Assembly (NCBI RefSeq): GCF_000143415.4
Contig: NW_003314393.1
Span: 191,175-255,174 of the forward strand
Source of the DNA: Selaginella moellendorffii
Taxonomy: Eukaryota > Plantae > Lycopodiophyta
Length of the DNA stretch: 64,000 nt
Direction of reading: 5' to 3'
Part shown: one piece after another, positions 9,966 to 46,864 of the stretch
How positions within the stretch are numbered: the stretch's first letter is position 1
Layout: each line of letters opens with the position of its first letter
The notes under the pieces: model-generated
What the model was told of the DNA's origin: nothing
The model's database searches: none
What the model saw: only the letters and a program-made list of their open reading frames with translations
Position numbers and translations under genes: made by a program

Positions 9966-10172
9966 GTGTCAAACATGGCATGGTTGCCAGTCAGCACAGC
10001 AGCATAGTCAGCACAGCATGCTTGCCAATCAAGATAAAAACTTGTAGTTGCATGACTTTGACAACAGACCATGACTCTGGGGCATCGTACTTCTCTTCGC
10101 ACTTGGCATGAATCTGTCGTCTGATGTATGATCACATGATTCTGAAATGAAACTCTTAAGGTTTTCTTTCTT

Positions 10173-16199: not shown

Positions 16200-19100
16200 G
16201 TTATTGCTCGTAAACCAATTTCTTGTATCAATTGGGCAATTTGAAGAGTCAGTGCCAAAAGCAATGCACGTTGCTCCGGAATGATTAGGAGTCAAGCTCA
16301 TTGTCTCGCATAAGTTCAAGTTCTTTAGCAATGCCATGTTTCTAGGGCTGTCGACATCTAGGGATAAAGGGCTGTCAGTCAAGTTGGATTTACTATTGTG
16401 GAACTACTGTTACTCATACAAGTGGGATCCACAGCTCAATTATTTTAAAGCCGGATTTTGTGAAGCTACTGAGTGAAGCTGCAATCTTTTGAAAAAAGAG
16501 ATTGAAAGTCTAGAGAGAGTAGGTTTCAAGCTGAAGACTTCCTCAAATGTTGCTATTGATACTATTATGCCACCAATGTCAACACTAGACCAGCATACAC
16601 GACCAGCTAGGAATGGGAAGGCTGTATAATATAAGTCTTCCATTTTGAAAGGTACGCAAGAAAAGATCAAGTTGGCAAACGAATTAAAGTGCACAATCAC
16701 AAAGACAAATTACATCAATGCTATGGTTAAAGAGTTTGTTATTGTGATTGAGTTGTCAAAAGATACGAGCTACACTATTAGAATATACAAAAATCCATCT
16801 TGTACCTGTCCAGATTTTACATAAATGGAGAACATTGGAAAGATATATTTAGTCTGCAAGCACATTTAATACTTTTTTGTGCAAGAACTAAACCAAGATC
16901 CTAAGATCAACCATTACATCCACAAGCAAGCCTTACAGTTGCGGAGCTTGAGAAGTGTTTTTAGATTGCTTTTAATGTTTGGATCTATATTTATATTTGT
17001 ATTTTATTTGTTGAATTTACTTGTGTAGTGCACGTGGTTTTGACCCTTTATCCTATGGTGATTTACCATAGGATAACACCACGAAGCGGAACCTAAACCC
17101 TCTTTATGCCACGTGACACATGCCACATGTCACATGCCACGTGTCCATGCCACATGTCCACAGGACAGTGGTGTGGAACCTGTGGTTCAGGGCCTTGGGC
17201 CATTGAATGAAGGAACAGTGCCAGACTCCCAAGTGTGGAGCCAAGGAGTGATGGAACTGAACCACGGAGTAACTCCCAAGCATACAACCCAAGGAGTGAA
17301 AGAACAAGAGCCTGGAGCGACTTGGAACAATCCTAGAGCAACCAGTATCCCAATGCCAGGACCAGCACGCAAAATGGAGTCTGGCGCTATTTCGGCATAC
17401 CGGTGGCCTAACGAGAGAGCATGGGTACTCCACCGGCTAGCATGGAATGGAACTTGGGCTTAGACCCAAGCTGGACACAGAACAAGGACAGGCACGCAAG
17501 CGAAAGCTAGACTATGCCTCAGGTTGGTCGGCCATGCCCGACCTACCCACTATCCCTACTATACATTTAGAACCCCCGACAGGCCCCCCCACCCCTTGAG
17601 GAACACACGCTTTGGGCTTTCACCCCAAGCCTCCCTTAGTATCAGGAGTTAGTCTCTGGGACAAACTTGAAACTTACTAAATATGGAATGTCCTTAGATT
17701 GTGAAGTTGGACATGGGACGAACACCATTGTGTTCAAAACAATCTCTACATTCTGTAGATATGCCAAATGAGCAAATCTAAACACTTTCCATAAATAGCA
17801 TTTGGGACCGAATTGAGACTAACACAAAGGGCATGATAGCGAGGGTGTTTGGTAGACACGGTAAACTATCATGTAGCGATATTGAGGGACTAATCTCAAT
17901 ACGCAAGGGTTCTTGTCAAGCCAGTGCAAGACAGAGCAAAAGAGAACTAAAAAGCCGGGCCAAGTATGCTTGGCTGAATAGACACTTAGGAATTCCGTCC
18001 TTATGCTCATCCGGCCAAGTACAGATGCAAAATTCAGTTTACTAACACTTGAACAAGAGGGACTGATAAAGGGTCCAGCAATACCGACCTCCTGCCATCG
18101 TGGCAGTAAGGTAAGAGTGTCCGTAAGGACTAGCCGACAGATAACTTTCGATACTCGAAGTCACATTCGCGACACTCTCCCCCCCTAGGGAAGATCGACG
18201 TCCTCGTCAATGCATACTCGAGTCTAGAATACTGCCAAGGAAACAACTCTAGAAAAAATTCACAATATTCACACTATGTGAGAAATGCACCAATTGAAAT
18301 GAGTTAGGAGACAACCTCTTTGTCTAATACGGATGCGCTATCAGCTCAGACACCTTCTGGCCATCGCCGACAAGGAAATGACCAATGGAGTTAGCCACCA
18401 TTGCTGCTCTGGGAGTCACCCAACTTACAAAAGTGTGATATGCCCCTGCCCGCAGGAACATAGAGAGAGAAGCCAGAGGCCCCAACCCTCCTAAGCAAAG
18501 AAACCAAACCTGTCGGTAAGGTTTAGATAGACTACTGTAAATAGGTAGTTAGAGTTGTTTACACGGTCACGCCCTTTTAACGGAATAAGGAACATCGACA
18601 GAGAGGCAGGTTATGTGACCAATCGACAGTAGCTACCACATGACTAGAGATTTCAACATGCACACGAAGTGCCGAAGCCAGTTTGCCTATTACTGGCCCA
18701 AACTCAAAGATCAATAAATGGACAATATCAAAGTCAGAGACAATGATATCTTAAAGACTTAATTACCAGTGATTAAATTTTAGATTAGAACACAAAAGTA
18801 TTCCAAATAATTTATCATCCGATAAACTAGTATTATAGTAGATAGGAACCACCAAGTTCATCAAAATTGGTAAACACAGGATTCACCATCCAACAAAATT
18901 CAATAGCAAGTATATCATCAAATAAACTCAATGATGAAACTTAACTACTGAAAATAGCAGACAGTAAACCAACAATTTACTAAAGATAACTCAAAGAACA
19001 CAAAGTATCATGGATTGACAAGCACAATGCTCGCGAATGTATCACCTGAAGGAAATAACATCCCAACCTATCAAAACTAACTTGAGCAATAATCAACAGA

Positions 19101-22100
19101 ATAGAATGAATGTGGCAAGACCAACAAACACTCATTCATGCCAATTATCACACTAGCCAATCCGAATAGATCCCAGCTAACAACACTAAGGAACTCAAGT
19201 TGCCTAAGCAAATGCCAGCAACATCCTACTGATGTCTCAAACCCAAGAGACTAATCTAGAGCAAACCACAAAGAACATATGGTATTGCGAAAAGCCAAAA
19301 GCCATCAAAGAGAACAATTAACCATCATGAAAGATCATCAATTATCCCATTAAAAAGATATGCCAAATCATCGTAAAAAAACAATCTACCATCCCGAAGA
19401 ACAGTAAATCATTCTATACCAACAATAATCAAGCAAAATCTTTTGACAAGGATAAACAACTATCTTAGATAATAGTTAGTCATCACCAATGATTGCTAGA
19501 TGCAAAAGCCAACTTCAACATCGAAGCTAATGAGCCAAAATTCCTTCCCCAACAACTTCTAACAAATGGAATAATGAGCATGAAAACTCAAAGAACCAAA
19601 AGCTCAAAGAAGTCTATAGCCAAGTCATGCCTAACAATGATCACGAGTCTCGCATGAACTAACTTCAATGCTAAGAAGAAAATCATGGTATAACCCACAA
19701 TATCCTCATTAACACATCTATAAGCTAAACTCCATAATGCAAAGCTAATGAAGAGCATGTCTGCATCAATCCAAAAGCTAAGCATAACGAAGCTATACTT
19801 GACAAGTGATCACCAAATGATCCTCCATGAATCCATTTATAGCAAGACGTAACTCACTTCATAACAAGCACAAGAAGAATCATCAATGCCACTCAGTTCA
19901 TTTGAACGTCAACATAGTTGCTAACTAGCAAATTTGTGAATGCTAATAATATAAAGCTACAGCTCAAGCATCAACACTAATTGCATTGAGACTAATGAAA
20001 CTCATTATCAATCTTATGGAGAGACATCTCATCTCACTCAAATCTCAACATCATCAATGTCAACGACAAGGCATCACTTCAATGCCATCAACACCATAAC
20101 AAAACTAGAAGAAAGCAAGAGTGAATCACCACTCAAAACTCTCCAGCAACTAAGCTAACCAAAGTTGAAGATACTTTACTCAGTATCCGAGACTAATCCT
20201 TCAGCAAAACTTAGTTACAGATAACACTTCATCACGGAGTGATTCACCACATCCAAGACTCAATGAAATCCAACACCACAACTAAATGCAACCAAATGAT
20301 ATCGACAAAGGTAAAGTCAACATATTAACATGGAAAACCCATGTAAGTCTAACAACACGATCCTTCGCAATACCATCCGATAAAGCAAGCCCATCACCGC
20401 TAAATTATCATCGAGTAAAGCAAGTGTCAAAAACCCTTGATAAAATCTACAAGCAATCTCTAGTTGCAAAGCAACCAACAATCACTTTTCAACTTGCCTT
20501 CACAAGACTTAAACACTAAACTCATGCCATCGAGTTATATACTTGTCTAATATCCCCAGGTGCGAGATAAAAGTTCATGGACAAGCACGAACTAAATGAC
20601 TACTCAAATCCAACTTAACCGCGATAAACTCACTAATGCATTTAGCCAATAGCTTTGAACATGCCTTGAAGAGGTTAGCTACACATGATCAACACTAAGT
20701 TGAAACTTAAGTGAAGACCATGAGATGGACTCATGTCGGTACACAACTTCCACTTAGACAAAGCTATAGTATGGGTACTAACATCTCAACCATAAACAAC
20801 TAAGTTGGACATCACCATCCTCAGCCAAGGCACAGGGCCACCAAGACTAAGTCAAGATTAGTGAGAGCTCACTACTTTTATAGAGTCTAATGAAATGCAA
20901 AGTACAACCTGCCACCAAGCATAATACTACAGAAGAAAGGCACAAGGGTCACCCTTCTTAGAAAAGTGCAACGGCCACTTTTCTACACCAACTCCAGACT
21001 CTATCCAACTCAATTGCCTTAGCCCCAAAACTTAGCATCCCTTTCGAGTTGCATCATACAAATTACTTACTAAGGTCTAAGCCAACCAAAGTCAACTCTA
21101 ACCCCTTCACTAGTTTGTACTGGCTTACGAAAATGGAATGGTTTTCAGACAAAGTGATAATAGATTAGCCATTGGAAAAGTCTAAGAAAATTTGTGGAAA
21201 ATTTTTCCATTCTAGAGAAAGAATGACTTTTAGTCCAGGAATACAAACTTTCAAGACTCAACCAACTTCCTCCTACTAACAACTTCACATAGGTTCACCT
21301 CAACACAAATTCTCATGACCCATAGTATGCTTAAGCCTCAAACATCTTTTGCTCATACCTCCGACATCCAAGTCCGACATCCGCAAAAATGCAAAGTGAA
21401 CATCCAAGGCTTGATGACGAAGACCACATCTTCGGATATCCACATTGCACTAACACTCTTTTTAACCACCTTCAAGATCTAATGTGAAGCTAAAACACTA
21501 ACAAGAAAAATGACATGGAAAATCAAGCTCTAAGGAAACTTCCTCATCACTTAAAATAAAAATGCCACTTCCACTAACACAAGTGTTAGAAATGTTAATG
21601 CCTCAACCTCATACCTTCTCTATCCAACAATCTACAATCTACAAGTGTTCACGGATCAACTAATAACCTATAGCAAATGAATGCTATAACCCTTTCCAAC
21701 ACCTTATGGGCAAACCCTCAAGGAAACAAAGAACCAACTTAAGCTTAGCATAATGGACCACCATCGAGAATCCAGTCAAAGCTACTTCAATGCTACTTTG
21801 TGCAAGTAGACTAGCTTCACCACCAACCACTTTGGGGTTAATCATTGTCTAACCAAGCAACTTCGTAAACACATTGCTCATTATCACATGGATATGATAT
21901 GGAAATCACAATGTCTTGATCATCAATCAAGCAACACACGAGCAATGCCAATGTCATTACTTCAAAGGTGTAGGTGAGTATCAAGTGTCAACTCAATTCG
22001 ACAAAATGCAACATAAATGCCACACTCCACCGATAGAGACTTACAACACCCAACACCACTAACTTTTGTTCACAACACAGACAAACTCATGCCACTCTCT

Positions 22101-24236
22101 TTCCAACCAAACTCAAAACTAATCCAACACCAAGCTACTCAAAGAGCAATAGCAAAGTTCCCCGGAAAAGAATTGAGCATTGCAACCCAAGTCTTCAATA
22201 ACAAGCCTAGACAAAATGGTTTAGCGCTTTACTGCTATCCACCCCATAACTGACCATTTGTAAGACCATCATCTCCAAGATGCATCAAGATAGGGACTCT
22301 TGATTACATACCATGAACACAAGCAATGAGTTAACACCTCGTTGCAAATCATGTCTCCAAGAAGAGAGAATGATTTACGTGTTTGATCCTTCGTCCCCGA
22401 TGACTCTTTTTTCGGTCTAATCTTTGATTACACCTCAAGTTTGCTTTCACACTGCCTTTAGTCCAATCCAAGAAAAGTTTATGAGAGAGCACAGCAACAA
22501 TTACTTGAATCAATAGACTCATCCCTATAGTCTTGATTGATCCACTTGTAATCATGCCTAGGAAGGATCCACTAGTGCCGTGCTAAATAGCTACGAACCA
22601 GCTTATTTACCACTCATAGCAAACCCAGGGAAAGTTTACTTTCACCCATGGTACATGGAAAAACTCATAGAACTACTGGAACAACTCATGGAACCACCGA
22701 TAGGCTAACATTAATCCTGCCAACTCAAAGCATATCCTTGAGTTGCTAATGCACTCACGAGCCTAAGCGCAAACTCGTGCAAATTGGAACAACTTAATCC
22801 CTCTTGTGAGCTCAAGCTCAAGCTCACATCATAAGGTACAAGAAGGTAACAAAAACCATACCCAAGGAACAATTGCAAAGCCTTTACACCTAAGCGTGTA
22901 CCCACTCGGATCATCGTTTTCATCTCTGCATATGCAACAAGACTAGTTGCCCAATCTCATTGTATAGTACTTGTTGAGACTCATTCTCTGATACCAAATG
23001 TAGCGCACGTGGTTTTGACCCTTTATCCTATGGTGATTTACCATAGGATAACACCACGAAGCGGAACCTAAACCCTCTTTATACCACGTGTCACATGCCA
23101 TGTGTCCATGCCACGTGTCCACAGGACAGTGGTGTGGAACCTGTGGTTCAGGGCCTTGGGCCACTGAACGAAGGAACGGTGCCAAACTCCCAAGCATGGA
23201 GCCAAGGAGTGACGGAACCGAACCACGAAGCAACTCCTGAGCATACAACCCAAGGAGCGAAGGAACAGGAGCCCAAAGCGACTTGGAACAGTCCTAGAGC
23301 AACCAGCATCCCAATGCCAGGACTAACATGCAAAACGGAGCCAAATGGAGTCTAGTGCTATTTCGGCATACCGGTGGCCTAATGCGAGAGCATGGGTACT
23401 CCACCAGCTAGCATGGAATGGACCTTGGGTTTAGACACAAGCCGGACGTAGAACAAGGACAGGCACGCAAGTAGAAGCTAGACTATGCCTCAGGTTGGTC
23501 GGCCATGCCCGACCTACCCACTATCCCTACTATACATTTAGAACCCCCCATGGGCGCCCCCCCCCCTGAGGAACACACGCTTTGGGCTTTCACCCCAAGC
23601 CTCCCTTAGTATCAGGAGTTAGTCTCTGCGACAAGCTCAAAACTTACTAAATATGGAATGTCCTTACATTGCGAATTTGGACATGGGACGAACACCGTTG
23701 TGTTCAAGACAATCTCTACATTCCGTAGATATGCCAAATGTGCAAATCTAGACACTTTCCATAAATAGCATTTGGGACCGAATTGAGACTAACACAAAGG
23801 GCATGATAGCGAGGGTGTTTGGCAAACACGGTAGCGATATTGAGGGACTAATCTCAATACGCAAGGGTTCTTGTCAAGCCAGTGCAAGACAGAGCAAAAG
23901 AGAACTAAAAAGCCGGGCCAAGTATGTTTGGCTGAATAGACACTTAGGAATTCTGTCCTTATGCTCATCCGGCCAAGTACAGATGCAAAGTTCAGTTTAC
24001 TAACACTTGAACAAGAGGGACTGATAAAGGGTCCAGCAATACCGACCTCTGCCATCGTGGCAGTAAGGTAAGAGTGTTTGTCAGGTAACTTTCGATACCC
24101 GATTCGTGACAACTTGGAAATATAGATTAAATCAAAATTGGAAAGATGAAAAAATGTTGGTTCAAGATGAGCCAATGTTTTTCTTGTGTTTGAGAAGTCG
24201 TAAGCTCAACTCATAAGTTCAAAATCTACCTAAGCT
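16200..24236 (+). mobile_element. Decayed MULE 3' fragment (SWIM + TIR), split by an LTR element into 16200-17023 and 24117-24236
   Basis: Homologous to the reverse complement of 52396-53370; ends ...AGTTCAAAATCTACCTAAGCT (TIR). Confidence 0.8.
17024..24111 (-). mobile_element. Non-autonomous LTR retrotransposon (LARD-like) with TSD ACTTG
   Basis: LTRs 17024-18174 and 22999-24111 (TG..CA). PBS TGGTATCAGAGA at 22985-22996 (rc) and PPT at 18175-18185 (rc). TSD at 17019-17023 and 24112-24116. The 4.8 kb interior has no long ORF. Confidence 0.9.
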
Positions 24237-27200
24237 AGATCCTAGGAGGAGATGAGAGTAGTGACTTGAAGGGGAGTTTACAAGCCACTCACTATGTTAC
24301 TAAATTTGGTGCAAACAGAGAGTCACTTGCAATTGATATCAAGGGATCTTTGACTGACTAAGCAATCACCTTCTTCTTTCCTTTTGCTCGGGTGGTTGTA
24401 GTTTGTTGCTGTTGTCTGTAAATGTCCTTAGCAACCAATATAAGGCTTTGACCATATGGTCAACATTGGTCAAAAGGAGGCTGAAAGGTATATTAAGGCA
24501 TGTTAGGACTTAACCTACCCTAGGGCTCATAGTGGAACGGCAGCATAGTGGAGCTTTGGAGGTAGCTCGGGGGTGGTTGGGTGGTGAGGAACCTCAAGAG
24601 GTGGCATAGCATGGTCTAGGGAGATTAGACTTCAATTTTTATTGGAGGAATATGAAAATTGATATTCTCAAGTATTGTAAATCATGCGAGCTTTGTCAAC
24701 GGGTTAAGGTGCCATGGGAGAAGTGGGGGGCATTTTTGCAACTTTTACCTATTCCTTAGGGCTGTTAGTGTAGTATTTCTATGGATTTCATCACTTGTTT
24801 GCTACTAACACAGAGGGAAAAAGAGCAAGGATGGGTCATAGTGGATTGGTTGACAAAGTATATGCCGTTGTTGGCTCTTTAGAAGACTATCACTGCTTCA
24901 AACTTGGCTGCGGTTTATTTGGAGAAGGTTTTTTCATGATTTTGGTTTCCCGAAGGACATTATTAGTGATTGAGTTTCAAAGTTCACCAGTGGATTTTGG
25001 AAGAGTTTTACAAAGGCTATACAAGTGACTTTGAAACTCTCGAGTGGAGATCATCCTTAAACGGATGGGCAAACTGAATGTGTGAATCAGGTGGTGGAGG
25101 ATATATTACATTGTAGCATTGGTCAAAGGCCAGGATAGTGAGTTCTTTATCTTCCATTGGTGCAATTTGCTTACAATAATAGCCAATACAGTGGAACCAA
25201 GCTAAGTCCTTACTTTTCCATGTTTGGAAGGCATCCCCAAACAGTGGTGGAGTTGGGATTGGATTTGAGTAAGGAAATTCAAGATAAGCTTGATTCTGAG
25301 ATGACTAATTTGGCCACAGAACTTGATGAGATTCTGGTGGTGTGCAAATGGAATTGGGGAAGGAGGGGTGCTTCCCCCAAGGCTCGCTTAAACACGAGAA
25401 ATGCTTCAACGCCCTTTGCAAAATGCCCCCCTTTGCCCTTATGGGGCAAGGGTTTTATACGTTGTATTCTCATCACATGGACAAATGGTCTTAAAGGGCA
25501 AAAGGTTGCCCCAAGAGAACAAATCAAGTGTTGGAGTAACACTTGTAAAGATGGTCCTTGTGAGTAGGACTTGAATACAAGAAGTTGTATTCCAGTGTGT
25601 TGGCACGTCAAAGGTGGGACCTCATGGGTCGTCAGATGACAAAGTCCAAAAAGCTAGAGGACTCAAATAGAGTCAAGGAATAATCCTGAAGGATTGATGG
25701 AAGCATTTGGACTGAGGTGTGTTGTGCCCTACTAATGATGGGGGGGGGGGATTATAGGATCCAAGGATGAGAACAGAGGGTATCTCATCGATGGGAGAAT
25801 GTGCCATGCTAAAGTGTTGGGAAAAGTGTTCCTAGAATAAGCAACTTTGGTGCAGAGTTCTGTGCGAACATTATAATGTAGTGCTAATGGATAGTTGGCA
25901 TGAGAAACCACTGGGTTGGTCTTGGCAAAGACCTAGACACAAGTGCAAAGTGTCATAAAGGTAGACACATGGAGCTGATGGTGTGGAGACACCAAATGGG
26001 CCAAGGTGTGATGCCTTGAGGTTATGTTGATGGGTTCATGAGAACCCCTTGCCAAGGGAATCTCAATGGAAATGGGAATGGTATAGGCTATATTGGAAGG
26101 CATGTGGTTGGAGTGTGGTAACCCAGATAATGATGAAGGTGTGGAAGCACCAAGCAATGAGTTGTAGGGCTTGACAATTATAGGGCAACTAAGCAAAAGG
26201 TGCAAAGATAATTAGTTAAACGGGTAGAAGGTAGCTACCCAAGATAATGGCATAAGGAAGTTAAATATACCCTTACACGGGCTAAATTGCTTATGTTGCG
26301 ATATAGTGAGTCAATGTCGTAAAAGGAAATGCTCATTGTCAAGGAGACCATCATTGGGACACCCAAACACTCTGGAACACCAGAAGGTGGTGTTTAGTGT
26401 CACGAGGGCAATAGATAAGGCCCAAGGGACTAAGTCCCTAGCGAATGATGGATAGAAGGTGCTATCCAAATGTCCAAGGTTGCGGAGACGGGAGAAGACT
26501 GTCTACCCAAATTGGACAAAGCTAAAAATGGAATTTTGGCAAGGCTAGTGAAAGCCTATGAGCAGCAACATTAACCCCGTTGTGTGGGATTATAAGGTGA
26601 GCATACCTGGATTGAGGAACCACTCCCTAGGCTATCGGGTAAATTCGTTCCTAAAAATACTTGCTAAGGCATGATAGAAAGTGCAAAGCTATCCTCCTAG
26701 TCTGGAGGAGAATGACAGAAAGAAAGGTGTGAAGCCAAAGGCAAATAGTAAGGGGATAGAACCGAACCATAGGAATCGAAGGGCATGACCAGGGCTGGTT
26801 ATGCCAGTTGGGAGTGGAGAATCAAGTGGGGGCTCGAGGGTGTTGTTGCTAGCAAACCATGATGCCATGGAGAGTCTAAAATATGGAATTGTCCATGTTA
26901 GACTATAGGGCAACTAGAAAGCTTGCAAAAAGGGAGGCCTTAGCAAGCTAAGGGACAGAGTTCCTTCAAGGTTCCCAAAACCCTCTCTTTGAACACTCGG
27001 GAACTACTTCCCTAACTTTGATAGCCTTGCCCCATGGCAAGCTTCAAGACCACGCTTCTGCTATGCCACTCTAGTTTCATGTGTTCCATGAACCATTTAC
27101 CCTTGGCCTTTCTAGGTACTAAGCTACCTAGAATCGTCTTTGAACGAAAGTTGATGGTCAAGGACTTTCACGCTTATGCAGGAACCATGTTACGGTGGTC

Positions 27201-27458
27201 GGAGGACTTACCAAGTGAGATTGGCAAGTCGGGGGAACAAATACCTTAGTTGAAGGTGATAATTTCAAAAGGGTGGGCCATAGGGCCAAGCATGGAGGAG
27301 TCCATGCATGATCACAGACTAGTCAAGTGAGAGGACTTGGTAGTGCAGAGGAACTAGGTTCCTAAGCTGTGATTTGTAGCACGCTTTATAAGTTGGTGCA
27401 CCGGCGTGGGGAGTCACGCCAGACATCCAGTGTAATGCCGTCTGTAGATGCATATACG

Positions 27459-28606
27459 TGTAAGGAACCAACTCGCCGAGGTGTCGTAGGCTAAGGGAAC
27501 CCCGAAAGCATGACCAAAATGACTAAGAGTTCATCGGATGGGACCAAGTCAAAGATCGAGTCCAAGACCGACTCTAGGACCGAGTTCGAGATAGAGTCCG
27601 GAATCGAGTCCAAGACCGACTCGGGGACCGAGTTCGAGTCTGAGTTCGAGACCGAGTTCGAGACGGAGTCCGAGATCCGAAATCGGGTCCGAGACCGAGT
27701 CCGAAGTCGAGTCCGAGGTCGGGCCCGAGATCGGGTCCGAGATCGAGTCCGCGATCGAGTCCGAGACCGAATCCGAAGTCGGATCCGAAATCGGATCCGA
27801 GATCGAGCCAGAGACTAAGTCCAAATACTAATACGGGTCAAGGGGTGAAAGCCCAAAGCGTGCGTCCCCCAGGGGGGGGGGGCTGCAGGGGGTTCCAAAA
27901 GTATAGTAGGGATAGTGAGGTCCAGGAACCAGTTTAGAAGGGACTCTCCAGTGGGGCTCCCAAACTGACTTGAGGTTGGGACTGGGACCGAGGGGCCTTG
28001 GGTGGGAGTGAGCATGGACTTGGTTGGTGCCGGAGGGGCCATCCAAGGAAGTGCTCAAGAGCAGCTCCCACTCCCGAAAGGGAAACCGATTGCGGTGCTC
28101 CCGGCTCATGTGGAGTGGTGCCCCACTTGAGTACCATGCGGCTCATTGGTCCTCGCCCTTCCTAGGGGCTTGGGCCTTCCTTCGGGATGGAAGTGGGGGG
28201 CGAGGGGTACCCATGCCGGGCCGTTAGGCCACGGTGTTTCGTACCGGCGTCCCGAAGCAAGTGTTGCACTCAAGACTTGGGATTTAGAGGGTCCCATGAT
28301 CAAGTCTTGTGGTACCAAGGGATGTTAGGAACCTGGAAGCTTGGTGTGCTTGGCTGCTTGTGCTTGCGGGGAGTGAAGCCGAACCTTAAGTCCAGTCTAA
28401 CCCGGGGAGGGGGATTGGGAGTGATTTGGGAATCCGTGGAAGGATGGCTAACGCTCCATTGCTTGTGCAGTGAGTAGCTGAAACCAAGTAGGAGCTGGTA
28501 CCATAGGCAATAACCTTGGCAAGGGAACTTAGCAAAAGCCAAGGCAGTGTTGGACGGATAGACGAGGTAAGCTGGCAAATTGGAAAGGAAAAATTTGTGG
28601 CTTACA
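27459..28606 (+). repeat. 5' LTR
   Basis: TGTAAGG...GGCTTACA; contains a GAGTCC/GAGACC microrepeat array. Confidence 0.95.
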
Positions 28607-28609
28607 ATT

Positions 28610-28621
28610 TGGTATCGGAGC
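28610..28621 (+). promoter_or_regulatory. Primer binding site (tRNA-iMet)
   Basis: TGGTATCGGAGC, one mismatch to TGGTATCAGAGC, 3 nt after the LTR. Confidence 0.9.
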
Positions 28622-28665
28622 CTTTATCTCAGTTCTAGCGAAGGATAGAGGCGGATTGCTGGGAG

Positions 28666-31600
28666 ATGGCAAGGGCAGGGCGTAAGCGAACCCAGGCGGA
28701 GACGGAACCTCCGCCGGAGCTGGAGCCTCCGGTTGAACAAGAGGCTATGGATGAGGAATCCTTGCATGAGGAGGACTCCAGTGAGGAAACTTCCAAACAG
28801 GAGTCCGGTGGCGAGGTTCGGTCGTCCAAGGCTCGATTGGACGTCCTAGAAGGACAGTTGGCACAGACCAATGCCCTGCTGGAGACTCTCGTACGCAAGT
28901 TAAAGCGTGACGAGAAGCGGAAGAAAAAGCGAAAGACTGCGGAGGCTGGCAGCGCAGAAGGTGCGGACCCTTCGGCAGGGACTGAGGCAAAACCAGACAA
29001 GGTCGAACAGACCGAAGTGGAACCAGTCCCTCAAGCAGTTCCCAAGTACAAACCAAAGCCCCCACCGGTGTTCAAGGGAGTGAACGACTATAAGGTTGTG
29101 GAGGATTGGTTTTACGATATGGAGGACTACTTCCGAGCGTTGCGGTTACCGAGCTCGGAGAAGGTCCCATGTGCAAAACCATACTTGGCAGATAATGCCA
29201 AGTCTTGGTGGAGAACAACGGAGGCCAACGAAGGACTGGTGGCCACCTGGGACATGATGAAGGCGAGGATCCGCGCGACATACGTTCCTCCGAATGCCAC
29301 TCTGCATCTGAGAGATGAGTTGAGTAGGCTGAAGCAAACTGGAACCATCCAGGAATATGTGAATGGGTTCATGGCAAAGAGGATACTTGTCACGGACATG
29401 GGGGATATGGATGCGTTCCATGCCTTTATATCAGGTTTGCAAACCTGGGCTCGCGGTGAGGTGATGCGCTGGAACCCGACCAACTACAAGGAAGCGTTGG
29501 ATGCGGCCATCAAGGTGCATTTCAACGATAACCTGCGAAAGGGGAACACGACGGGGTCGGGATCCACGTTTCACAAAGGGGCCAAACCGAGGGGAACATA
29601 TAGCAAGGGGAAATTCAAGAAGAGTTTCTCTAAGAATGAGTCCTCGGGGTTCCGGAAAGGCAAATCCGGTGGCCAGCGAGCGAGTACGTGGGGAAGTCAA
29701 GCGAAAAAAGACAAACCCACGGATAAGAAGGTCAAGTCGTATAGCAGCGTGGGCAACAACGTATGCTACAACTGCGGCGAAGCGGGACACTTCTCAAGGG
29801 AATGTCCCTACCCGAAGAAGGCCAGAGCCAATATGGCCATCAAGTCGGGTGAAGTCCAAACTGAGGTATGTGATCCAGTCCCTAACTCAAAGTTACTCAT
29901 TACACGAGCAACTTTGGTAGAGAGTCGTTCGCGACATCTACTAGCCCTCCGAGGGAAGCTCGGAGGTAGCTTTGTTAAGATCCTTATTGACACGGGTGCT
30001 TCGGATAATTTTGTGGCTGCAGACATAGTCCGGCAAGCCGGACTAACGGTGCAGCGGCTAGGCGAACCAAGGACTATAGAGTTTGTTCAAGGTAGCCAAA
30101 GCACCGATGAGGTACTTCGACAAGCGAGAGTCGAAGTGGGGACATGGAAAGTGGACATGGATTTCACCGTCTTGGACATGGCGGGATTTGACGTGATCTT
30201 CGGAATGGATTGGTTTAATCGGTTCGTGGTGGCCCTGCATGGACAAGGTAGGAACCTTGTGGTATTGGCGAATGCCCAAGGAAGAAGATCTAGGGTGGAG
30301 GCCCAGGATCTAAAGGTAGGGCAAAGCAAGGCCAAAGAGTCATGCTTAAACCTGGTGTCCACGAGAGGACAACTCACTAAAGGAACTAAGGCAGCCTTTT
30401 TGTGCTTACTCTCGGTGAAGAGTGACAAAAAGACAAGAACGGAAGAAGTACCTTTAGTGATCCAGCAGGTGCTGGACCAATTCCAGGATACCATGCCAGA
30501 GGAGCTACCGGCGGGGTTGCCCCCCGCACGACCGATAGAACATAAGATTGAGCTAGTCGAGGGTGCTGAGGCGGTGGTTCGTCCACCCTATCGATTGAAC
30601 GAAAAAGAACTCAAGGAGCTCAAGAGCCAACTAGAAGAGTTGGTGGGCAAAGGGTATGTTAGGTTGAGCAAGTCGCCGTATGGGGCGCCGGTGCTATTTG
30701 TGAAAAAGAAAGATGGATCTATGCGCATGTGCATAGACTACCGGTTGCTCAACAAGTATACCAAGAAGAACAAGTACCCTTTGCCAAGGATCGAGGACCT
30801 GTTCGATAGGTTGGGAAAGGCAAAATACTTCTCGAGGATTGACCTAAGGTCAGGATACTACCAGATCAGGGTAGCTGAGGAAGATGTCGAGAAGACAACC
30901 TGTCGAACGAGGTATGGGAGCTTTGAGTTTTTGGTGATGCCCTTTGGGCTGTGCAATGCGCCGGCAACGTTTTCGGCGTTGATGAACCACATCTTTGTAC
31001 CCTATCTGGATCGCTTCGTGGTCGTCTATATTGACGACATCCTGATCTATAGCGAGACGCTAGAGGAGCATGCCGAACACTTGGCGAAGGTGTTTGAGAA
31101 ACTAAGGGAACACAAACTGTATGCTAAAGAGAGCAAATGTGACTTTGCTCAACAAAAGGTAAAGTTTCTCGGGCATGTGGTGGGCCAGGACGGGCTCAAG
31201 GTGGACCCGGAGAAAGTCCAAGCGATCCAGGAATGGGAACGACCATCGAACGTACATGAGTTGAGGGCGTTCCTGGGGCTATGCAACTACTATCGAAAGT
31301 TTATCAGACACTATTCGAGAGTAGCCCTGCCCTTAACGGACCAAACAGGAAAAGGGAAGATGGTATGGACAGCGGAATGCGAGGCGGCATTCGTCCACCT
31401 CAAAGGGAAGTTGAGGAAGGCTTCGGTGTTGGCATTACCAGACTTTGGTAAGGACTTTGAGGTAGACACGGATGCTTCGGACTTTGCGTTGGGCGCAGTT
31501 TTGAAGCAAGACAACCATCCAGTAGCGTTCTTCTCGAAGAAGCTGGACAAGGCTCAACGGAAGTGGCCTGCCCACGAGAAGGAATTGTTTGCGGTGGTCA

Positions 31601-33438
31601 AGGCGCTCAAGGAGTGGCGACACTACCTTGGGAGACACTTCAAGGTTTACACGGACAATGTGGCAACGAAACACTTCTTGTCACAGCCCGACCTAAGGGG
31701 AAAACAAGGTCGGTGGGCCAATGCTTTGGCCGAGTTTGATTGCGAGATCCTGTACAAGCCTGGGAAGAGCAACATCGTGGCAGATGCGCTCAGTCGAAAA
31801 GCGAGCTTGAAGTTGGCGATATCTAGCGCGACAGCAACCTTTTGGGACGATGTGCGGACCGCATACGAGAGTGATGGTCTAGCACAAGAAGTGTTGCTGA
31901 GGAATCTGGAGGCGCGGGAAGCTCACCAGAGAGGTGAGCTGCCAACGGAAGAGAAAACGGGCTATGCGGAACGCAACGGACTCATATATTACAAGCAAAC
32001 GAGGGTGTATGTTCCAGAAGGGGAACTAAGGAAGGTAGCCTTGGAAGAGTGTCATGACGGACCTCTCGCGGGACACGGCGGAGTGCCCAAGACGATGGGC
32101 TTACTCAAAAGGAAGTATCACTGGCCAGATATGGCTAAGGACGTCCAAGACTATGTAAAGACATGCCCAACATGTCAGCAGGTCAAAGCCGTGACGAAGG
32201 CTAGTGGGGGCTTGTTGCAAAGCATCCCCATTCCAGATCGTCCGTGGAAATGTCTCACGATGGACTTCATCACGGGACTACCCCCAAGCGAGGGGTTCGA
32301 TGCGATATTCGTGGTGGTGGACCGATTTTCAAAGATGGCACATTTCATACCCACCACGACGGATGTGGATGCGGAAGGTGTGGCGAAGCTGTTCTTCGAA
32401 CAAGTGGTTCGAGTGCGGGGAAGGCCGGAAGAGATTATCTCAGATCGAGATAAGATCTTCACCAGTAGGTTCTGGAGGACACTCCTAGAACAGTATCGCA
32501 CCAAGTTGAAATTCAGCACGGCCTATCACCCACAGACAGGTAATGGGTATTGAGTCAAGATTGATGGCACTAACACTTCTTGACAGACGGACAAACGGAA
32601 AGGGTGAATAGGCAGCTGGAGGATTATTTGCGATGCTATGTCTCGGGAGACCAGACCGACTGGGTAAGTCATTTGGGACTTGCGGAAATGTGTTATAACA
32701 ACTCACCACATTCGAGCATCGGGGTGAGTCCATGGGAAGTCATCAATGGGCGAGCTATTGAAGGTCCTGTGGAACTCGGCGTGGCCGAGTATCATGGAGA
32801 GTTACCCGCAGTGGAGGCATTCACGGCGGAAAGACTCAACATTTGGAATCTAGTGAGGGATTCCTTGGAACGGGCTCAACAAAGGCAAACTAAGTACGCG
32901 AACCAAAAGCGTCGAGATGTGGAGTTCCAAGCTGGGGAGAAGGTGTGGCTGAACACCAAGAACCTCAGGCTACCAAGTGGGATCAGCCGGAAGTTGACCC
33001 AAAGGTAAAAATGCATGTATTCCTGTAAATGAATTGATCTTGAGTTCCTTAAGCAGGTTCGCGGGGCCTTACGAGATTGAGGCTCGAATCGGTAAAGTGG
33101 CTTACCGTCTCCGACTTCCTCGAGAGATGGGGAAGATGCATCCCGTGTTCCACGTGAACTTACTCAAGCCGTATTTTGAGGATCCGCTTCGCAAGGACCA
33201 AGTAAGACCTTTACCTGAGGTTATCCAAGGGGAGGAGGAATACGAAGTCGAGGCCATCCTCAATGCGCGCAAGAGCAAGCGACAAGGACGCGAGGTGAGA
33301 GAGTTCCATGTGAAGTGGAAAGGATTTCCACACTGCGAAGCAACATGGGAACCGGAGGAGAACCTAGCGAACGCGCGAGATCTAGTGGAGGAATTTCTGC
33401 ATGGCAGAACTCTATGTACTTATGCAAAGTTCAATTAA
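28666..33438 (+). CDS. Gag-Pol polyprotein with chromodomain; exons 28666-32539, 32587-33004, 33057-33438
   Basis: CCHC knuckle [14 protein letters not shown], protease LIDTGA, RT YIDD, RNase H TDAS, integrase HHCC + MDF, GPY/F motif and chromodomain EYEVEAIL...VKWKG...TWEPEENL. Two GT-AG introns restore conserved motifs. Confidence 0.92.
32540..32586 (+). other. 47-nt spliceosomal intron in the integrase core
   Basis: GTAATG...CACTAAC...GACAG; removal restores HPQTDGQTER. Confidence 0.88.
33005..33056 (+). other. 52-nt spliceosomal intron in the integrase GPY/F region
   Basis: GTAAAA...AAGCAG, AT-rich; removal restores [12 protein letters not shown]. Confidence 0.88.
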
Positions 33439-33845
33439 AAGTATCAATTTGAGAAGTTGAGCAATGGCATATGTTGGGACCCGAAGGCGCGCCGAAGGTG
33501 AGCTAATTAGCATGGGTTAGCTAGGTCGACCAGGCGTAGGGAGCTACGCCCGACTCCCTGCGGGGATGTCGAATCCGTAGACGTATTCTACGGAGGTTGG
33601 GTTTGAGTCCCAACCCCCTAGTAAAGCAAGGCTGGGTTCAAGTCCCGACCCCATACTAGGGCGTGGTGAGGGGTGGAGTATAGGGACACCTATATTCCGT
33701 TGTCATGAGCTCTTGGCCGGGGAGGCTAACTTAGGCACACCGCTAAGTGGGGGGATGCCCCCGGAGACATGGTCAACAAGTTGTAGGATAAAAAAAAAAG
33801 AGACGTTCGATGTGGGCATCGAACTTCTTCTATGGGTGGTGGAGT

Positions 33846-34993
33846 TGTAAGGAACCAACTCGCCGAGGTGTCGTAGGCTAAGGGAACCCCGAAAGCATGA
33901 CCAAAATGACAAAGAGTTCATCGGATGGGACCAAGTCAAAGATCGAGTCCAAGACCGACTCTAGGACCGAGTTCGAGATAGAGTCCGGAATCGAGTCCAA
34001 GACCGACTCGGGGACCGAGTTCGAGTCCGAGTTCGAGACCGAGTTCGAGACGGAGTCCGAGATCCGAAATCGGGTCCGAGACCGAGTCCGAAGTCGAGTC
34101 CGAGGTCGGGCCCGAGATCGGGTCCGAGATCGAGTCCGCGATCGAGTCCGAGACCGAATCCGAAGTCGGATCCGAAATCGGATCCGAGATCGAGCCAGAG
34201 ACTAAGTCCAAATACTAATACGGGTCAAGGGGTGAAAGCCCAAAGCGTGCGTCCCCCAGGGGGGGGGGGCTGCAGGGGGTTCCAAAAGTATAGTAGGGAT
34301 AGTGAGGTCCAGGAACCAGTTTAGAAGGGACTCTCCAGTGGGGCTCCCAAACTGACTTGAGGTTGGGACTGGGACCGAGGGGCCTTGGGTGGGAGTGAGC
34401 ATGGACTTGGTTGGTGCCGGAGGGGCCATCCAAGGAAGTGCTCAAGAGCAGCTCCCACTCCCGAAAGGGAAACCGATTGCGGTGCTCCCGGCTCATGTGG
34501 AGTGGTGCCCCACTTGAGTACCATGCGGCTCATTGGTCCTCGCCCTTCCTAGGGGCTTGGGCCTTCCTTCGGGATGGAAGTGGGGGGCGAGAGGTACCCA
34601 TGCCGGGCCGTTAGGCCACGGTGTTTCGCCCCGGCGTCCCGAAGCAAGTGTTGCACTCAAGACTTGGGATTTAGAGGGTCCCATGATCAAGTCTTGTGGT
34701 ACCAAGGGATGTTAGGAACCTGGAAGCTTGGTGTGCTTGGCTGCTTGTGCTTGCGGGGAGTGTAGCCGAACCTTAAGTCCAGTCTAACCCGGGGAGGGGG
34801 ATTGGGAGTGATTTGGGAATCCGTGGAAGGATGGCTAACGCTCCATTGCTTGTGCAGTGAGTAGCTGAAACCAAGTAGGAGCTGGTACCATAGGCGAGAA
34901 CCTTGGCAAGGGAACTTAGCAAAAGCCAAGGCAGTGTTGGACGGATAGACGAGGTAAGCTGGCAAATTGGAAAGGAAAAATTTGTGGCTTACA
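33846..34993 (+). repeat. 3' LTR
   Basis: Near-identical to 27459-28606 and the same length. Confidence 0.95.
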
Positions 34994-36693
34994 ATACGGA
35001 GGTTGGGTTCGAGTCCCGACCCTCTAGTGCTTGGGTTCGAGTCCCGACCCTATAGTGCTTGGGTTCGAGTCCCAAATCACTAGGGCGTGGTGATGGTTTG
35101 GAATATGAGGACACTCATTTTTCGGTGGTCATGTACTCTCAGTGCGGAGACTGGCTTGGGCACACTGCCAAGTGGGGGATGCCCCGGAGTCGTGATACAT
35201 GGTTAGATTGCTTAGTGTGGCTCGGCATATCTAATTTGAACACTTTGGTGCAAGTGGCACCAAGGACGTGGTGAATGAGATGGGGACACCCAGTCTTGGT
35301 TGCTATGGACCCTTGGCCGGAAGGGCTAGCTTGGGCACACCACCAAGTGTGGGGGATGCCCCCAGGGTCGTGGTCAACAAGTTAAAGGTCTGGAAGACTA
35401 GTACCTATTGGCAAACCTGTTAAGGTGTCAAGATTAGATTGCTAAGTGATCGCATGGCTAAACAAGGATGAGGTCCTTGTGAGGTTAAGGAACAAGGTTC
35501 CTAGTTCAAAGCGTTGATTTGAACTATTGATAATGGTGTGGCTTGGTCAAGGTGACCAAGTGGGAAGGACACCTAAGAAAAATGAACTACGACAATACAA
35601 TGGTATTGTGAGTTCAAAGTAGTTTCTGGGAGAGACCTTTGGGAGGGTCACAAAGTTGGGCCGAGGAAGGGGCCCATAGCAGAAAATGCTAAAAAGGTGA
35701 GCACCCTCTGGACTTGGCAAAGTGGAGCTTTTCCATGGAACCAAAAGGATACCTCAAGGAGAGAGGTAGTGATCCTGTGTTGCTTGATGCAACAATCAAC
35801 GGATAAGAGCAAAAGACTAGTGGCCAAGTTTGGGCCATGGAATTTAATGGGAGGAATCCAAATGGCAAAGTTAGCCAAGGAACACTAATGTGTTTGATGC
35901 TAATGGATTGCGGGAAAGGAAGTGGATTTCCAAGGATAGATTCCCAAGTGCTCCAATTTGGCGAAGTAAAAGCTCCAAGTGGGGAGTAGCAAAGTAGCCA
36001 AAGGATAAGGCCGTGGACAGCCGTGGACAGCCCTGGCACAAATGATGAAAATTGAAACGTAGTGCCAAGGGTGGCACAAAATAGAAAAGAAGATGATGGT
36101 GCCCTTAAGTAGAGAACTTCCTAGGATAGGGAGGTGGACTTGCACAATATGTGCAATACAAGATGTCGGAGGCACTTAGAAAATTGACTTCAAGAAGTCA
36201 AAAATAAACGTTCCAAAGTGCAAAGGTTATGTCGATGGAATCCGAGACTACTCGGGAATGAGTAAAGCTCTATTTCGTTAAAGTGGGAATTGTCATTATC
36301 CCACTTGTAAAATAAGGTTTCCAAACCTTTATATAGTATATATATATAACAAAATTCAACTACATTGAGGCACATGCCATTTTATTTTAAACAAGGAAAT
36401 GTCTACTCAATCACTTCTCCTCCCCCTGCCACTGCTTCACCTCTCTCTTCTCCTTGTCATCGTCGTCCAATTTCTTTCCATCCTTTTAATATTGGCTCAG
36501 TTGCTCCGAGTCTAGGTGGAGCCCAAGTCCCCATTCAATCTTTACTTTCCCCTTATTAATAAAACAACTTCGTAGACTTCCAATAACATGCTGTAAATGC
36601 AAATCCTCTCAAAGAATTGTCTTTTAATATTAATACAATGGCATGGAACCCCATGCCATAATAAGTTACATTTTTAAATAAATACATGCCATC

Positions 36694-43722: not shown

Positions 43723-46700
43723 ATGGCCTTCAGGGTTAGGGAAAAGGTTTACATTTTGAATGGTGGGAAGAGAGTTGCAAAAGGGACCCTTGTGTCTATG
43801 GATCGGAACTTTGTTATACACTGTCAAAGGCTTGGGGAAGGCAATGCTACTGTATCAGTAGAGACTGTCTTCGATGGGAATGTGGTCGCTATTGAACGAG
43901 GAGAGATGGTCGTCGGGGTAAATGTTGTTGTTGCCTTAAAAAATCTTCAGAAGAAAGCAGATGTTGGGGACAGCGCAAGTGCGACGCATGTTCCCTCCGT
44001 GGATCTTAAGAACCGTGCTACATGGATTCAGGCAAAGGTGTTTCTAAACAACCCCGAGGGGAAGGTGGTAGCTGAGGGCTTAGCCACAGTTGTCGATCCA
44101 AGAGATGCGGTTGCTAATCAAGAATTGGGCTGGGATGATATTGGAGTTGCGATTTTAGAGGTTGTTGACACAGAAGAAAACAGTCTGACTATTGGAAGCA
44201 TTGTGCGGTGGAAATTGAGGCACTTAGTGTTTGAGAATGTGAAGGATTCACAATCAAACACCACTACAACTGATGACAGAACATCTATTCATGGGAAAAG
44301 AAAGTACACCTTCCTAAAGCGCAGCCAAAGGGATCTGAGCAACGAACCGAAAAGGCAGAAAATGGCGATGGAGGTTTGAATGGTCTCGACAGTTGCTTGT
44401 TGCAAGAGGAGGTGCTGTCAACATGCTGATTGGGATGCTATTGAAGAGGAGAGAGCAAGATACAAGACATTGTCCTGGAAGGCAGCTCGCAATTTTGTGT
44501 ATGAGGCATTACGGTCATCTGTTAATGCTTCAGAACATCAGGTGGGGGGCATGGTCTTCCAGAGGGGTTTGGTCTGCACGAAGGCATGGAGAATCATTTA
44601 TGGAGTCCCTCGAACCACATTCTACAGAATCAAAACTGAGTTCGAGGAACAAAGGGTTCAACAGGCAGTCCATGGGAACGACGGTACGCACAAAACCAGG
44701 GGTCATGTTGTATATGGAGAGGCAATCTTCAAGAGGTTTGTCGAGACATGTAGTGAGCAGCAACCACATAAAACCCGCCTCTTGGAAAATGGAACACGAG
44801 ACACCCAACGAGTTCTCCCTTCCATGTATACCAAGGGGGCCATATTGGAAGATGTGAATCGGGAACTCCAGAGTAATGGCTACAGGAAGCTGAGCCAATC
44901 TAGATTTAGTAGATTGTGGAGCAACAGGTTCAGGGATGTGAGTATAGGAAAGTACTCCAGCTTTTCAAAGTGTGACGAGTGCACTGCTATCAAAATGGCT
45001 TTGTCGAAGAATTCTTGCAGCGCTCAAGAGCGAGAGACGTTGGTTAGAAGGCGGCTCGACCACAACATTGAACAGAGAAGCTGCAGAACTGCATATTATC
45101 ATAACAGGATTCTCTCCATGGAGAGACCTGACTCTTACCTCTGCATCATCCACGACAAAATGGACCAGAAAAAGACGTGCTTACCTCGACTCAATCCTGC
45201 CCCCAAGGCAATCTCTTCATCCATGCAGCTGCCTGTGTCTTTGTTTGGCATAATCGCTCATGGGCATGGTGCCCAGAACTATGGGAACTTCTTTGTACCT
45301 CTATGGGGTGGCGGGGGTGCAAACATGATGATTGCGTCCCTAGCAAAACACTTAAGGTCTCTGCAAAGTGCGCAAACTGAGTTGAACGGCCAACCCTTGC
45401 ATAAGGCCCTTGTCGATCGAACCCCATACAGGGTTCAGCTGGAGGAGGAGCAAAGGCTTGCAGTATCGCATGGGGCCCCATGCCATCCCAGTGAATATGT
45501 TGGCCGTCAGATTGTAGGGTTATCACGTGAGGCCTCATGCCATTCCGACGAGGCTGGTCGCCCGGTGAATGCACAGCCTCATCCAAACGAAGCAGAATCT
45601 CAAGGAAGTTCTTGCGGCCGATGTGGCCTTCCACCCCATCTTCTGCTCCAAACAGACAATGCTGGCAGTGAGAACAAAAACATGTACGTCTTCGCGTACT
45701 TGGCGATGCTTGTTGCCAAAGGCATATTTGAAACGATTACACTTGGCTTTCTCATGGTTGGGCACACTCATGAAGACGTCGATGCCATGTTCAGTCACCT
45801 GGCAGAGTCCCTCCAGCAATCCAATGTCCTCACCCTCCCACAACTCTACGATGAATTCCAAAATTGCATCAAAGGCACTGTTGAAGCTGCACTTCTGACA
45901 GAGGTTCCAGACTTTAAGGGGTTTGTAAGAGGCTACATCAGGGACGGATCCGAAACGCTGATTGGCCACTCCAAGCCTCTTCAGTTTCATTTCAGCATGT
46001 GTGACGGTGCTCCAGTGATGAGGTACAAGATGAGAGAATGGGACACAGTGTGGCTGCCAGTGGACGGCATTGAACTCTTCAAGAGAGATCCCATAACTAG
46101 GGAACCTATGATTCCTCAGGGTTCCCCACGGCCGATGCACCCGGATGGACTCAAAGACCAGGAAAGTATAGTGGCCGGGATTAGACAGCATATTGCCTTC
46201 TGGAAGAGGGGGTTGGTGTTTGGTGGAGAATCCTATTTTCAGAGGTGCAAGCCTTTGCTCGAATACTGGGAGAAGATTATATCTGCTATCCAAAATGGGC
46301 CAGTTGTATATGAAGAATTGGAAGAGTCCTTTTGGCCAGAACCCAGAGCACCAGATAGTAGCGGAACAATGTCCTCTGGAAATGCAGTGACAGATAACGA
46401 TGTTGAGGATCACTATTGTGGGCCGAGGAACAAGAAGCCGGATTCAGCATTCAATCCAGTACAGGTCTGCAAAGGAATGGTCGTGCTTGTCAGACCCAGT
46501 AATAAAAAACAAATGATATGGGTGGGGCGCTGCATCACTGATGCAGAGGAGGACGTGGAAACTAACTCCTTCAATGTAACTGTGGAGTGGTTCAAGCCAA
46601 GTTCTGGATATACGAAGGATTGCCTAGAAAAGAGATGGGTGCTGAATCCAAGGGATCCCAGCATGAGCATATCGGTGGATAATGTTGTGCATGGTTGGAT

Positions 46701-46864
46701 GCGAAAGCAGAGTGCCACCATCACCTTGCCAGACCATGCAAGAGATGCAGCAAGAACATTCATAACCCGGGTTCAAGGTGAGATTCATGAATATTCCTTT
46801 ACTAAGTTTCTAATGTATTTTATTTCAAGGTGAACAATCCGAATCTGAATCAGAGGAGGCGTGA
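43723..46864 (+). pseudogene. Sola-like DDD transposase with an in-frame TGA at 44377-44379 and a last intron at 46778-46829
   Basis: CCKRRC, CTKAW, FSKCDEC, IIHDKMDQKK, LQTDNAGSENKN and FLMVGHTHEDVDAMF. ORFs 43723-44379 and 44380-46833 abut in the same frame across one stop. Confidence 0.85.

Follow-up and report, generated by a model that had tools for sequence, protein, structure and literature searches.

Spliceosomal introns in the integrase of SM1-Galahad, an LTR retrotransposon of Selaginella moellendorffii, and an intron that takes out its primer-binding site

Four spliceosomal introns appear to be present in a single LTR retrotransposon family, SM1-Galahad, of the lycophyte Selaginella moellendorffii, and the two that interrupt its integrase have probably been kept because a further intron, at the 5′ end of the transcript, removes the primer-binding site (PBS) and would leave mainly unspliced RNA copyable. 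That the two integrase inserts are themselves spliced introns is, in our judgement, very likely. The copy described here lies in a window of 64,000 nucleotides (the whole stretch of DNA that was analysed, from the forward strand of contig NW_003314393.1; all positions are counted from its first letter). Its features are given below, the target-site duplications (TSDs) and the purine-rich tract (PPT) being read directly from the sequence.

27459–34993, plus strand: LTR retrotransposon, whole element (7535 nt; TG..CA ends)
27454–27458, plus strand: 5′ target-site duplication, ATACG
27459–28606, plus strand: 5′ LTR (1148 nt, TG..CA; 11-nt poly-G at 27872)
28567–28632, plus strand: intron 0 (66 nt, GT..AG; joints in likely-RNA contigs of runs X15 and X16)
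28610–28622, plus strand: primer-binding site TGGTATCGGAGCC (tRNA-Met type; wholly within intron 0)
28666–32553, plus strand: ORF1 of the unspliced RNA (3885 bp / 1295 aa; stop four codons into intron 1)
29866–30022, plus strand: intron P, alternative (157 nt, GT..AG; joints in runs X17 and X16, contig ends in X15)
32540–32586, plus strand: intron 1 (47 nt, GT..AG, phase 1; in the integrase core, between D1260 and E1296)
32587–33004, plus strand: integrase exon 2 (418 nt; contains the catalytic E1296)
33005–33056, plus strand: intron 2 (52 nt, GT..AG, phase 2; in the C-terminal SH3-like domain of integrase)
33057–33438, plus strand: integrase exon 3 (remainder of the SH3-like domain, chromodomain and stop; Pfam PF24626 and PF00385)
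33832–33845, plus strand: purine-rich tract preceding the 3′ LTR
33846–34993, plus strand: 3′ LTR (1148 nt; 99.3% identical to the 5′ LTR)
34994–34998, plus strand: 3′ target-site duplication, ATACG

Pfam matches place Gag, a zinc knuckle, protease (PR), reverse transcriptase (RT), RNase H (RH) and the N-terminal half of integrase (INT) in ORF1, and an SH3-like domain and a chromodomain in the last short ORF; the overall order, Gag-PR-RT-RH-INT with a C-terminal chromodomain, is that of a chromovirus (Ty3/gypsy). On the plus strand between 33438 and the 3′ LTR we found no ORF of at least 120 aa and no env gene. The two LTRs differ at 8 of 1148 sites (K2P 0.0070) and ATACG is present on both sides, in agreement with a first-pass annotation of this DNA, which had described LTRs about 99% identical and an intact TSD. 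At the grass substitution rate of 1.3e-8 per site per year, which is uncalibrated for Selaginella, this divergence would correspond to an insertion age of about 0.27 million years. Since the LTRs are 0.7% apart and the TSD is present, this copy of the element was made by reverse transcription with its introns in place. The sequences on either side (27430–27458 and 34994–35383) resemble the element's own 3′ untranslated region, with identities of 91% over 34 nt (34995–35028), 73% (35031–35189) and 77% (35280–35383), and the element has probably inserted, as a nested copy, into an older relative of itself.

In the accessible text of its original description (Novikov 2012; PMC3350952), SM1-Galahad is a family of hundreds of copies assigned to the Galadriel clade, 7.5 kb in length, with LTRs of more than 1 kb that carry a poly-G run of 11–25 nt, a 13-bp tRNA-Met PBS and a PPT. 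Its consensus, built from many copies, contains an ORF of 3885 bp / 1295 aa followed by two short ORFs, 316 and 309 bp long, the second of which encodes the chromodomain (PMC3350952). The copy in the window has the same organization (7535 nt, LTRs of 1148 nt, a poly-G of 11, an ORF1 of 3885 bp / 1295 aa, a PBS and a PPT), and its downstream ORFs measure 318 and 309 bp against the published 316 and 309 bp, again with the chromodomain in the last. As matched by this published description, rather than by the consensus sequence, the element is a young copy of the chromodomain-bearing Ty3/gypsy family SM1-Galahad. The original authors found no intact copy and read the pieces as separate ORFs, three in all; the strings 'intron' and 'splic' each occur 0 times in the accessible text (PMC3350952). 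Because the published consensus has the same 3885-bp ORF1 and 309-bp chromodomain ORF, the split ORFs are the state of the family. The family as published and the element here agree in size, LTRs, PBS and ORF lengths, and differ in that the pieces are here exons of one spliced gene, which has two further introns. The sister family SM2-Galahad has a single uninterrupted ORF of 1577 aa (PMC3350952, accessible text), which suggests that introns were gained in the SM1-Galahad lineage.

The 47- and 52-nt GT-AG inserts break the reading frame at HPQT|DGQTER and KLTQR|FAGPY, exactly as the first-pass annotation had it. Excision of both joins these residues and opens a single frame of 1557 aa, from the ATG at 28666 to the stop at 33436–33438, with no other break in its 1557 codons; removal of insert 1 alone gives a frame that ends at 1440 codons, and removal of insert 2 alone one that ends at 1304 (both counted from 28639). 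The two introns total 99 nt, and exon 3 is therefore in the frame of ORF1. Compensating frameshifts (47+52 = 99 nt) were considered and ruled out, as exon 2 is out of frame and the ORF1 stop lies inside insert 1. The GC content is 40% in intron 1 and 33% in intron 2, compared with 52% in the coding region. A CTAAC motif, previously put forward as a branch point, is indeed present in intron 1 and ends 12 nt before the intron's end, and intron 2 contains TTGAT; both are recognized as motifs only. The chance of finding GT..AG at both inserts, in any equivalent placement, is about 0.029 x 0.024 = 7e-4; the exact skips in RNA-type data, described below, are the more direct evidence. The ends of intron 1 (32535–32586) carry a 5-nt direct repeat, GACAG, with 6 equivalent placements, and those of intron 2 (33003–33058) a 4-nt direct repeat, AGGT, with 5; short direct repeats of this kind may be marks of recent intron gain.

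Comparison with 206 proteins showed spliced junction 1 to be gap-free in 203 of the 203 homologs that span it and spliced junction 2 in 162 of 188. The best single-copy homologs are plant polyproteins of about 1530 aa (45–49% identical), and protein searches returned no close family member, with identity of at most 59% among the matches listed. Among the best 150 representatives, an HPQT-like motif is present in 137 (133 continue with DG or NG and 4 run on for at least 119 residues) and absent in 13; none of the 150 stops just after the motif, and these protein sequences thus give no sign of intron 1 in relatives. Eleven metagenome loci were distant (47–64% over short stretches), and 0 of 11 cover junction 1. 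A decayed integrase near 25050 had also been cited as lacking the insert: insert 1 is absent there (24616–25261), but this integrase is only 30–42% identical at the protein level, so that it belongs to another family and is uninformative on intron-less SM1-Galahad copies.

DD35E integrases depend on their catalytic glutamate for activity. Because E1296 lies in exon 2, the product of the unspliced RNA is predicted to have no working integrase, and because E1296, the SH3-like domain and the chromodomain are all downstream of intron 1, a whole integrase needs splicing, as the first-pass annotation had maintained.

Eight of 24 sequencing runs were compared with the element. X15 and X16 belong to one study, X17 to another and X23 to a third; X15–X17 were classed as RNA by guess, and the two runs on record as RNA, X23 and X24, contributed 10 and 2 reads. 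Introns 1 and 2 are both exactly skipped on a single X15 contig (record 6) and again in X16 record 20, and intron 1 is skipped in 1 of the 10 raw reads of X23, with 41 letters on the short side; no joint was listed for the 2 reads of X24. The earlier proposal that the inserts are spliced is borne out by these junctions. An X17 contig (record 13) retains intron 1 and enters the start of intron 2, which indicates that unspliced RNA or DNA is present in that run. All four intron skips occur in X16, spread over three contigs (records 18, 19 and 20), with intron 0 on separate contigs from introns 1 and 2; contigs are not molecules, and no single molecule linking intron 0 to the integrase introns was seen. 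In X15 and X16, runs of one study, the spliced contigs break off shortly upstream of the stop codon (33385–33395), and coverage in X17 and X23 reaches further 3′.

The spliced contigs differ from the copy in the window by about 2–6% and thus derive from other family members, so that splicing is demonstrated for the family and not for the window copy. Between the expressed copies and the window copy, exons 2 and 3 show 11 differences, of which 10 fall at third positions and leave the amino acid unchanged when read in the spliced frames (p 1.3e-4); in exon 1, 24 of 29 differences are synonymous. The test was based on 40 of the 160 differences found. The bias in exons 2 and 3 indicates that the parts behind the introns are under selection as protein.

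Genomic copies of the family were examined in DNA run X1, of which 89,447 contigs were compared with the element. Depth inside intron 2 (position 33007) was 1.083e6, against 1.097e6 (32841) and 1.125e6 (33215) in the exons, these being summed depths and no copy number; in X16 the depth was 0 inside intron 2 (33007) against 11.2 in exon. The position-level DNA depth refers to intron 2 only (33007), and DNA depth in 199-nt bins is unusable for intron presence, as a 47-nt loss falls within the scatter (0.86–1.24e6). None of the 15 best-supported of 307 X1 joints (depth 288–462) is at an intron, some X1 joints being uncounted. X14 record 15 spans introns 1 and 2 without a gap, X4 record 26 is gap-free through intron 2, and 24 X1 contigs carry a 1-nt deletion inside intron 2. 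Introns 1 and 2 are near-completely retained in DNA copies; rare intron-less copies are possible below the joint-depth cut. The published consensus with its same 3885-bp ORF1, and an X1 depth in intron 2 equal to that in the exons, answer the concern that the inserts might be unique to this copy: they are family-wide. Introns 1 and 2 show the features of U2-type introns, namely GT..AG ends, AT-richness, exact removal in likely-RNA data and presence in DNA copies.

Two further introns, absent from the first-pass annotation, concern the production of Gag and the PBS. The joint of intron P is present in an X17 contig and in X16 record 19, and in X15 contigs break off at 29865 and resume at 30021, at the borders of this intron. 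Its excision removes the protease DTG (29989), and in the spliced RNA a stop at 30026–30028, one codon past the junction, yields a 401-aa Gag-only product; it is an alternative intron that terminates translation just after Gag, of the BARE1/EVADE type. In X17, spliced intron P is found alongside retained intron 1. Bin depths suggest that X15 and X16 are without any contig through intron P, and a Pol message, which would retain intron P but lack introns 1 and 2, was not seen in the likely-RNA runs.

For intron 0, X16 record 18 joins 28455–28564 to 28631–29561 with no letters between, and X15 record 1 has LTR sequence joined ahead of 28631; the splicing evidence for this intron comes from that one study (X15, X16). 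The donor at 28567 lies in the LTR, upstream of the PBS at 28610, and the intron is made up of the final 40 nt of the LTR followed by 26 nt in which the entire PBS is contained. The PBS, TGGTATCGGAGCC, is one letter off TGGTATCAGAG, the form found at other PBSs in the window, and is presumably a match to tRNA-Met itself. The CTTAC that terminates the LTR, within 28601–28650, lies 27 nt upstream of the end of intron 0 and loosely resembles a branch point. Folding of 28500–28700 places the pyrimidine tract and AG of intron 0 in a hairpin directly after the PBS, a weak lead (z = -1.73; 9 of 200 shuffles were as good). At four other PBSs in the 64-kb window, intron 0 has no clear counterpart.

Other features of the window include a non-coding LTR element on the minus strand (17024–24085) with LTRs 90.7% identical, a PBS at 22996 and no internal frame of more than 82 codons. 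Over 110 nt, pieces of its LTR resemble that of SM1-Galahad at about 80%. A donor-like ATG|GTAAAT precedes the PBS of this non-coding element by 45 nt, and the element is possibly a non-autonomous passenger. The minus strand carries at 48385–50064 another gypsy-type Gag-PR-RT frame, which shares 34% identity with ORF1 and has a PBS at 50054; a DUF7869 frame of 817 codons lies at 44380–46830 on the plus strand. Positions 621–2930 and 9881–12190 form a 2310-nt inverted duplication (99.9% identical) that contains a piece of an LRR gene and lies beside an N gap (499–620); this is either a recent duplication or an assembly artefact.

In the replication of LTR elements the PBS is needed for tRNA priming and the U5 end for attachment. 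Because the PBS lies inside intron 0, RNA spliced at that intron is not expected to be primed; without the tRNA primer site and the U5 attachment end, it would serve as message only. If the splicing of intron 0 is coupled to that of introns 1 and 2, RNAs that keep the PBS and have lost the integrase introns would be rare. Under such largely all-or-none splicing only intron-complete RNA would be copied, and the introns would persist. Three products are predicted: a 401-aa Gag from RNA that has lost intron P; from unspliced RNA, a 1295-aa Gag-PR-RT-RH protein ending in a dead half integrase; and, from RNA that retains intron P but has lost introns 1 and 2, the full 1557-aa Gag-Pol, which includes integrase and chromodomain. 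Use of intron P on part of the RNA would set the Gag excess. We put forward only tentatively the more general proposal that splicing acts as a master switch deciding whether an RNA becomes genome or message, through an intron that is formed by the LTR end together with the primer site and makes every spliced RNA uncopyable. The LTR's terminal CTTAC would then be a possible branch point, and the hairpin or the tRNA primer might mask the acceptor.

The first-pass annotation held that unspliced RNA must be selectively packaged. That necessity is not established: since intron 0 removes the PBS, selection at priming could do the same job. It is nevertheless conceivable, though in our estimation unlikely, that the introns are real and the template is chosen elsewhere, through selective packaging of unspliced RNA (by an intronic signal or nuclear routing) or through a separate replication transcript from another start site, with intron 0 as a side effect or a translation enhancer. 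BARE1 offers a precedent, as only its unspliced, uncapped TATA1 transcripts, those found in particles, are copied (PMC3735527, accessible text). Intron loss, moreover, is one-way, so that a small leak past the PBS gate should erode the introns, and their near-complete retention may need a second filter; the X17 contig with intron 1 and the start of intron 2 would also fit. Against this, excision of intron 0 takes out both the PBS and the U5 end and blocks priming alone, with no extra machinery, and we came upon no second start site or packaging signal; a choice of template by packaging or transcript can also hold together with the PBS gate.

We consider it very improbable that the intron-bearing copies are non-autonomous, receiving integrase in trans from a rare intron-less master or from SM2-Galahad with its uninterrupted ORF, and that the gap-free contigs represent an intron-less DNA copy. 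A single such copy could fall below the depth cut of the X1 joints examined, but the PBS stretch and the protease active site are missing from those runs too, with the breaks falling exactly at GT-AG ends, and a DNA copy without these could not be a master. X17, in addition, has intron P spliced beside intron 1 retained, and exons 2 and 3 are intact, with nearly all their differences from the expressed copies at synonymous sites; a passenger would not have preserved them in this state. That mutations of the ordinary kind in a dead copy happen by chance to look like introns has hardly any probability left; the spliced contigs do come from family members other than the window copy, but exact skips in three runs, the family-wide presence of the inserts, the 7e-4 chance for both ends and the lack of any other break in 1557 codons all argue against it.

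Retention of the integrase introns through removal of the PBS can be set beside several known systems, as these are described in the accessible parts of the sources cited. A Gag-making intron at the Gag/protease border with a stop just after Gag is known in BARE1 of barley (PMC3735527), and Gag splicing in EVADE/copia (PMC12786077, PMC7197481). BARE1/EVADE share with SM1-Galahad the short alternative intron and the stop just after Gag, and their spliced RNA is not copied into the genome. They are, however, Ty1/copia elements with Pol made from unspliced RNA, whereas SM1-Galahad is Ty3/gypsy and its whole integrase requires two more splices; the filter is a second promoter in BARE1 and, likely, PBS removal in SM1-Galahad. 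With its gypsy domain order and an unspliced RNA whose frame stops before E1296, the element does not belong to the BARE1/EVADE group. Ogre, a plant Ty3/gypsy element, requires splicing of part of its transcripts for the full polyprotein; it is a non-chromovirus whose two ORFs are separated by a single intron of about 274 bp, in contrast to the 47- and 52-nt introns within integrase and the PBS-removing intron of SM1-Galahad.

In foamy viruses the major splice donor is located in the R region of the LTR and precedes the PBS, and Pol is made from a spliced mRNA (PMC5035957, accessible text); from the positions of donor and PBS we infer that their spliced RNAs lack the PBS. SM1-Galahad shares this placement of a donor in the LTR and ahead of the PBS, but foamy viruses are retroviruses with env, in which the pol message skips gag by one large intron and no short host-like integrase introns are described in the accessible text (PMC5035957). 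With its single Gag-Pol frame, the element departs from the foamy-virus layout, which has env and a separate Pol. A 2025 review names, in its accessible text, Ogre and introns of the EVADE type as the sole plant exceptions (PMC12786077). In the open-licence literature we found no report that places introns within the integrase of a retrotransposon, and none of an LTR retrotransposon whose PBS is spliced out. Splicing in SM1-Galahad is a variant of known retroelement splicing, in which Gag introns, polyprotein introns and LTR donors are already known and the integrase introns and the PBS-removing intron are new among open-licence reports.

The loss of introns by passage through RNA is a textbook mark of retrotransposition. 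A high-copy, recently active family with two obligatory integrase introns contradicts that expectation, and splicing out the primer site is a simple way round it. A family published as 'broken' can be re-read as intact, and screens based on ORFs would call such elements dead. Two questions become testable: by what means retroelements keep message and genome apart, and how spliceosomal introns arise anew. If splicing does act as a master switch, an LTR retrotransposon would be free to gain and keep host-type introns in pol, the dose of integrase would come under host splicing control, and SM1-Galahad would provide a natural system for intron gain in a retroelement, with its intron-less sister SM2-Galahad as the control.
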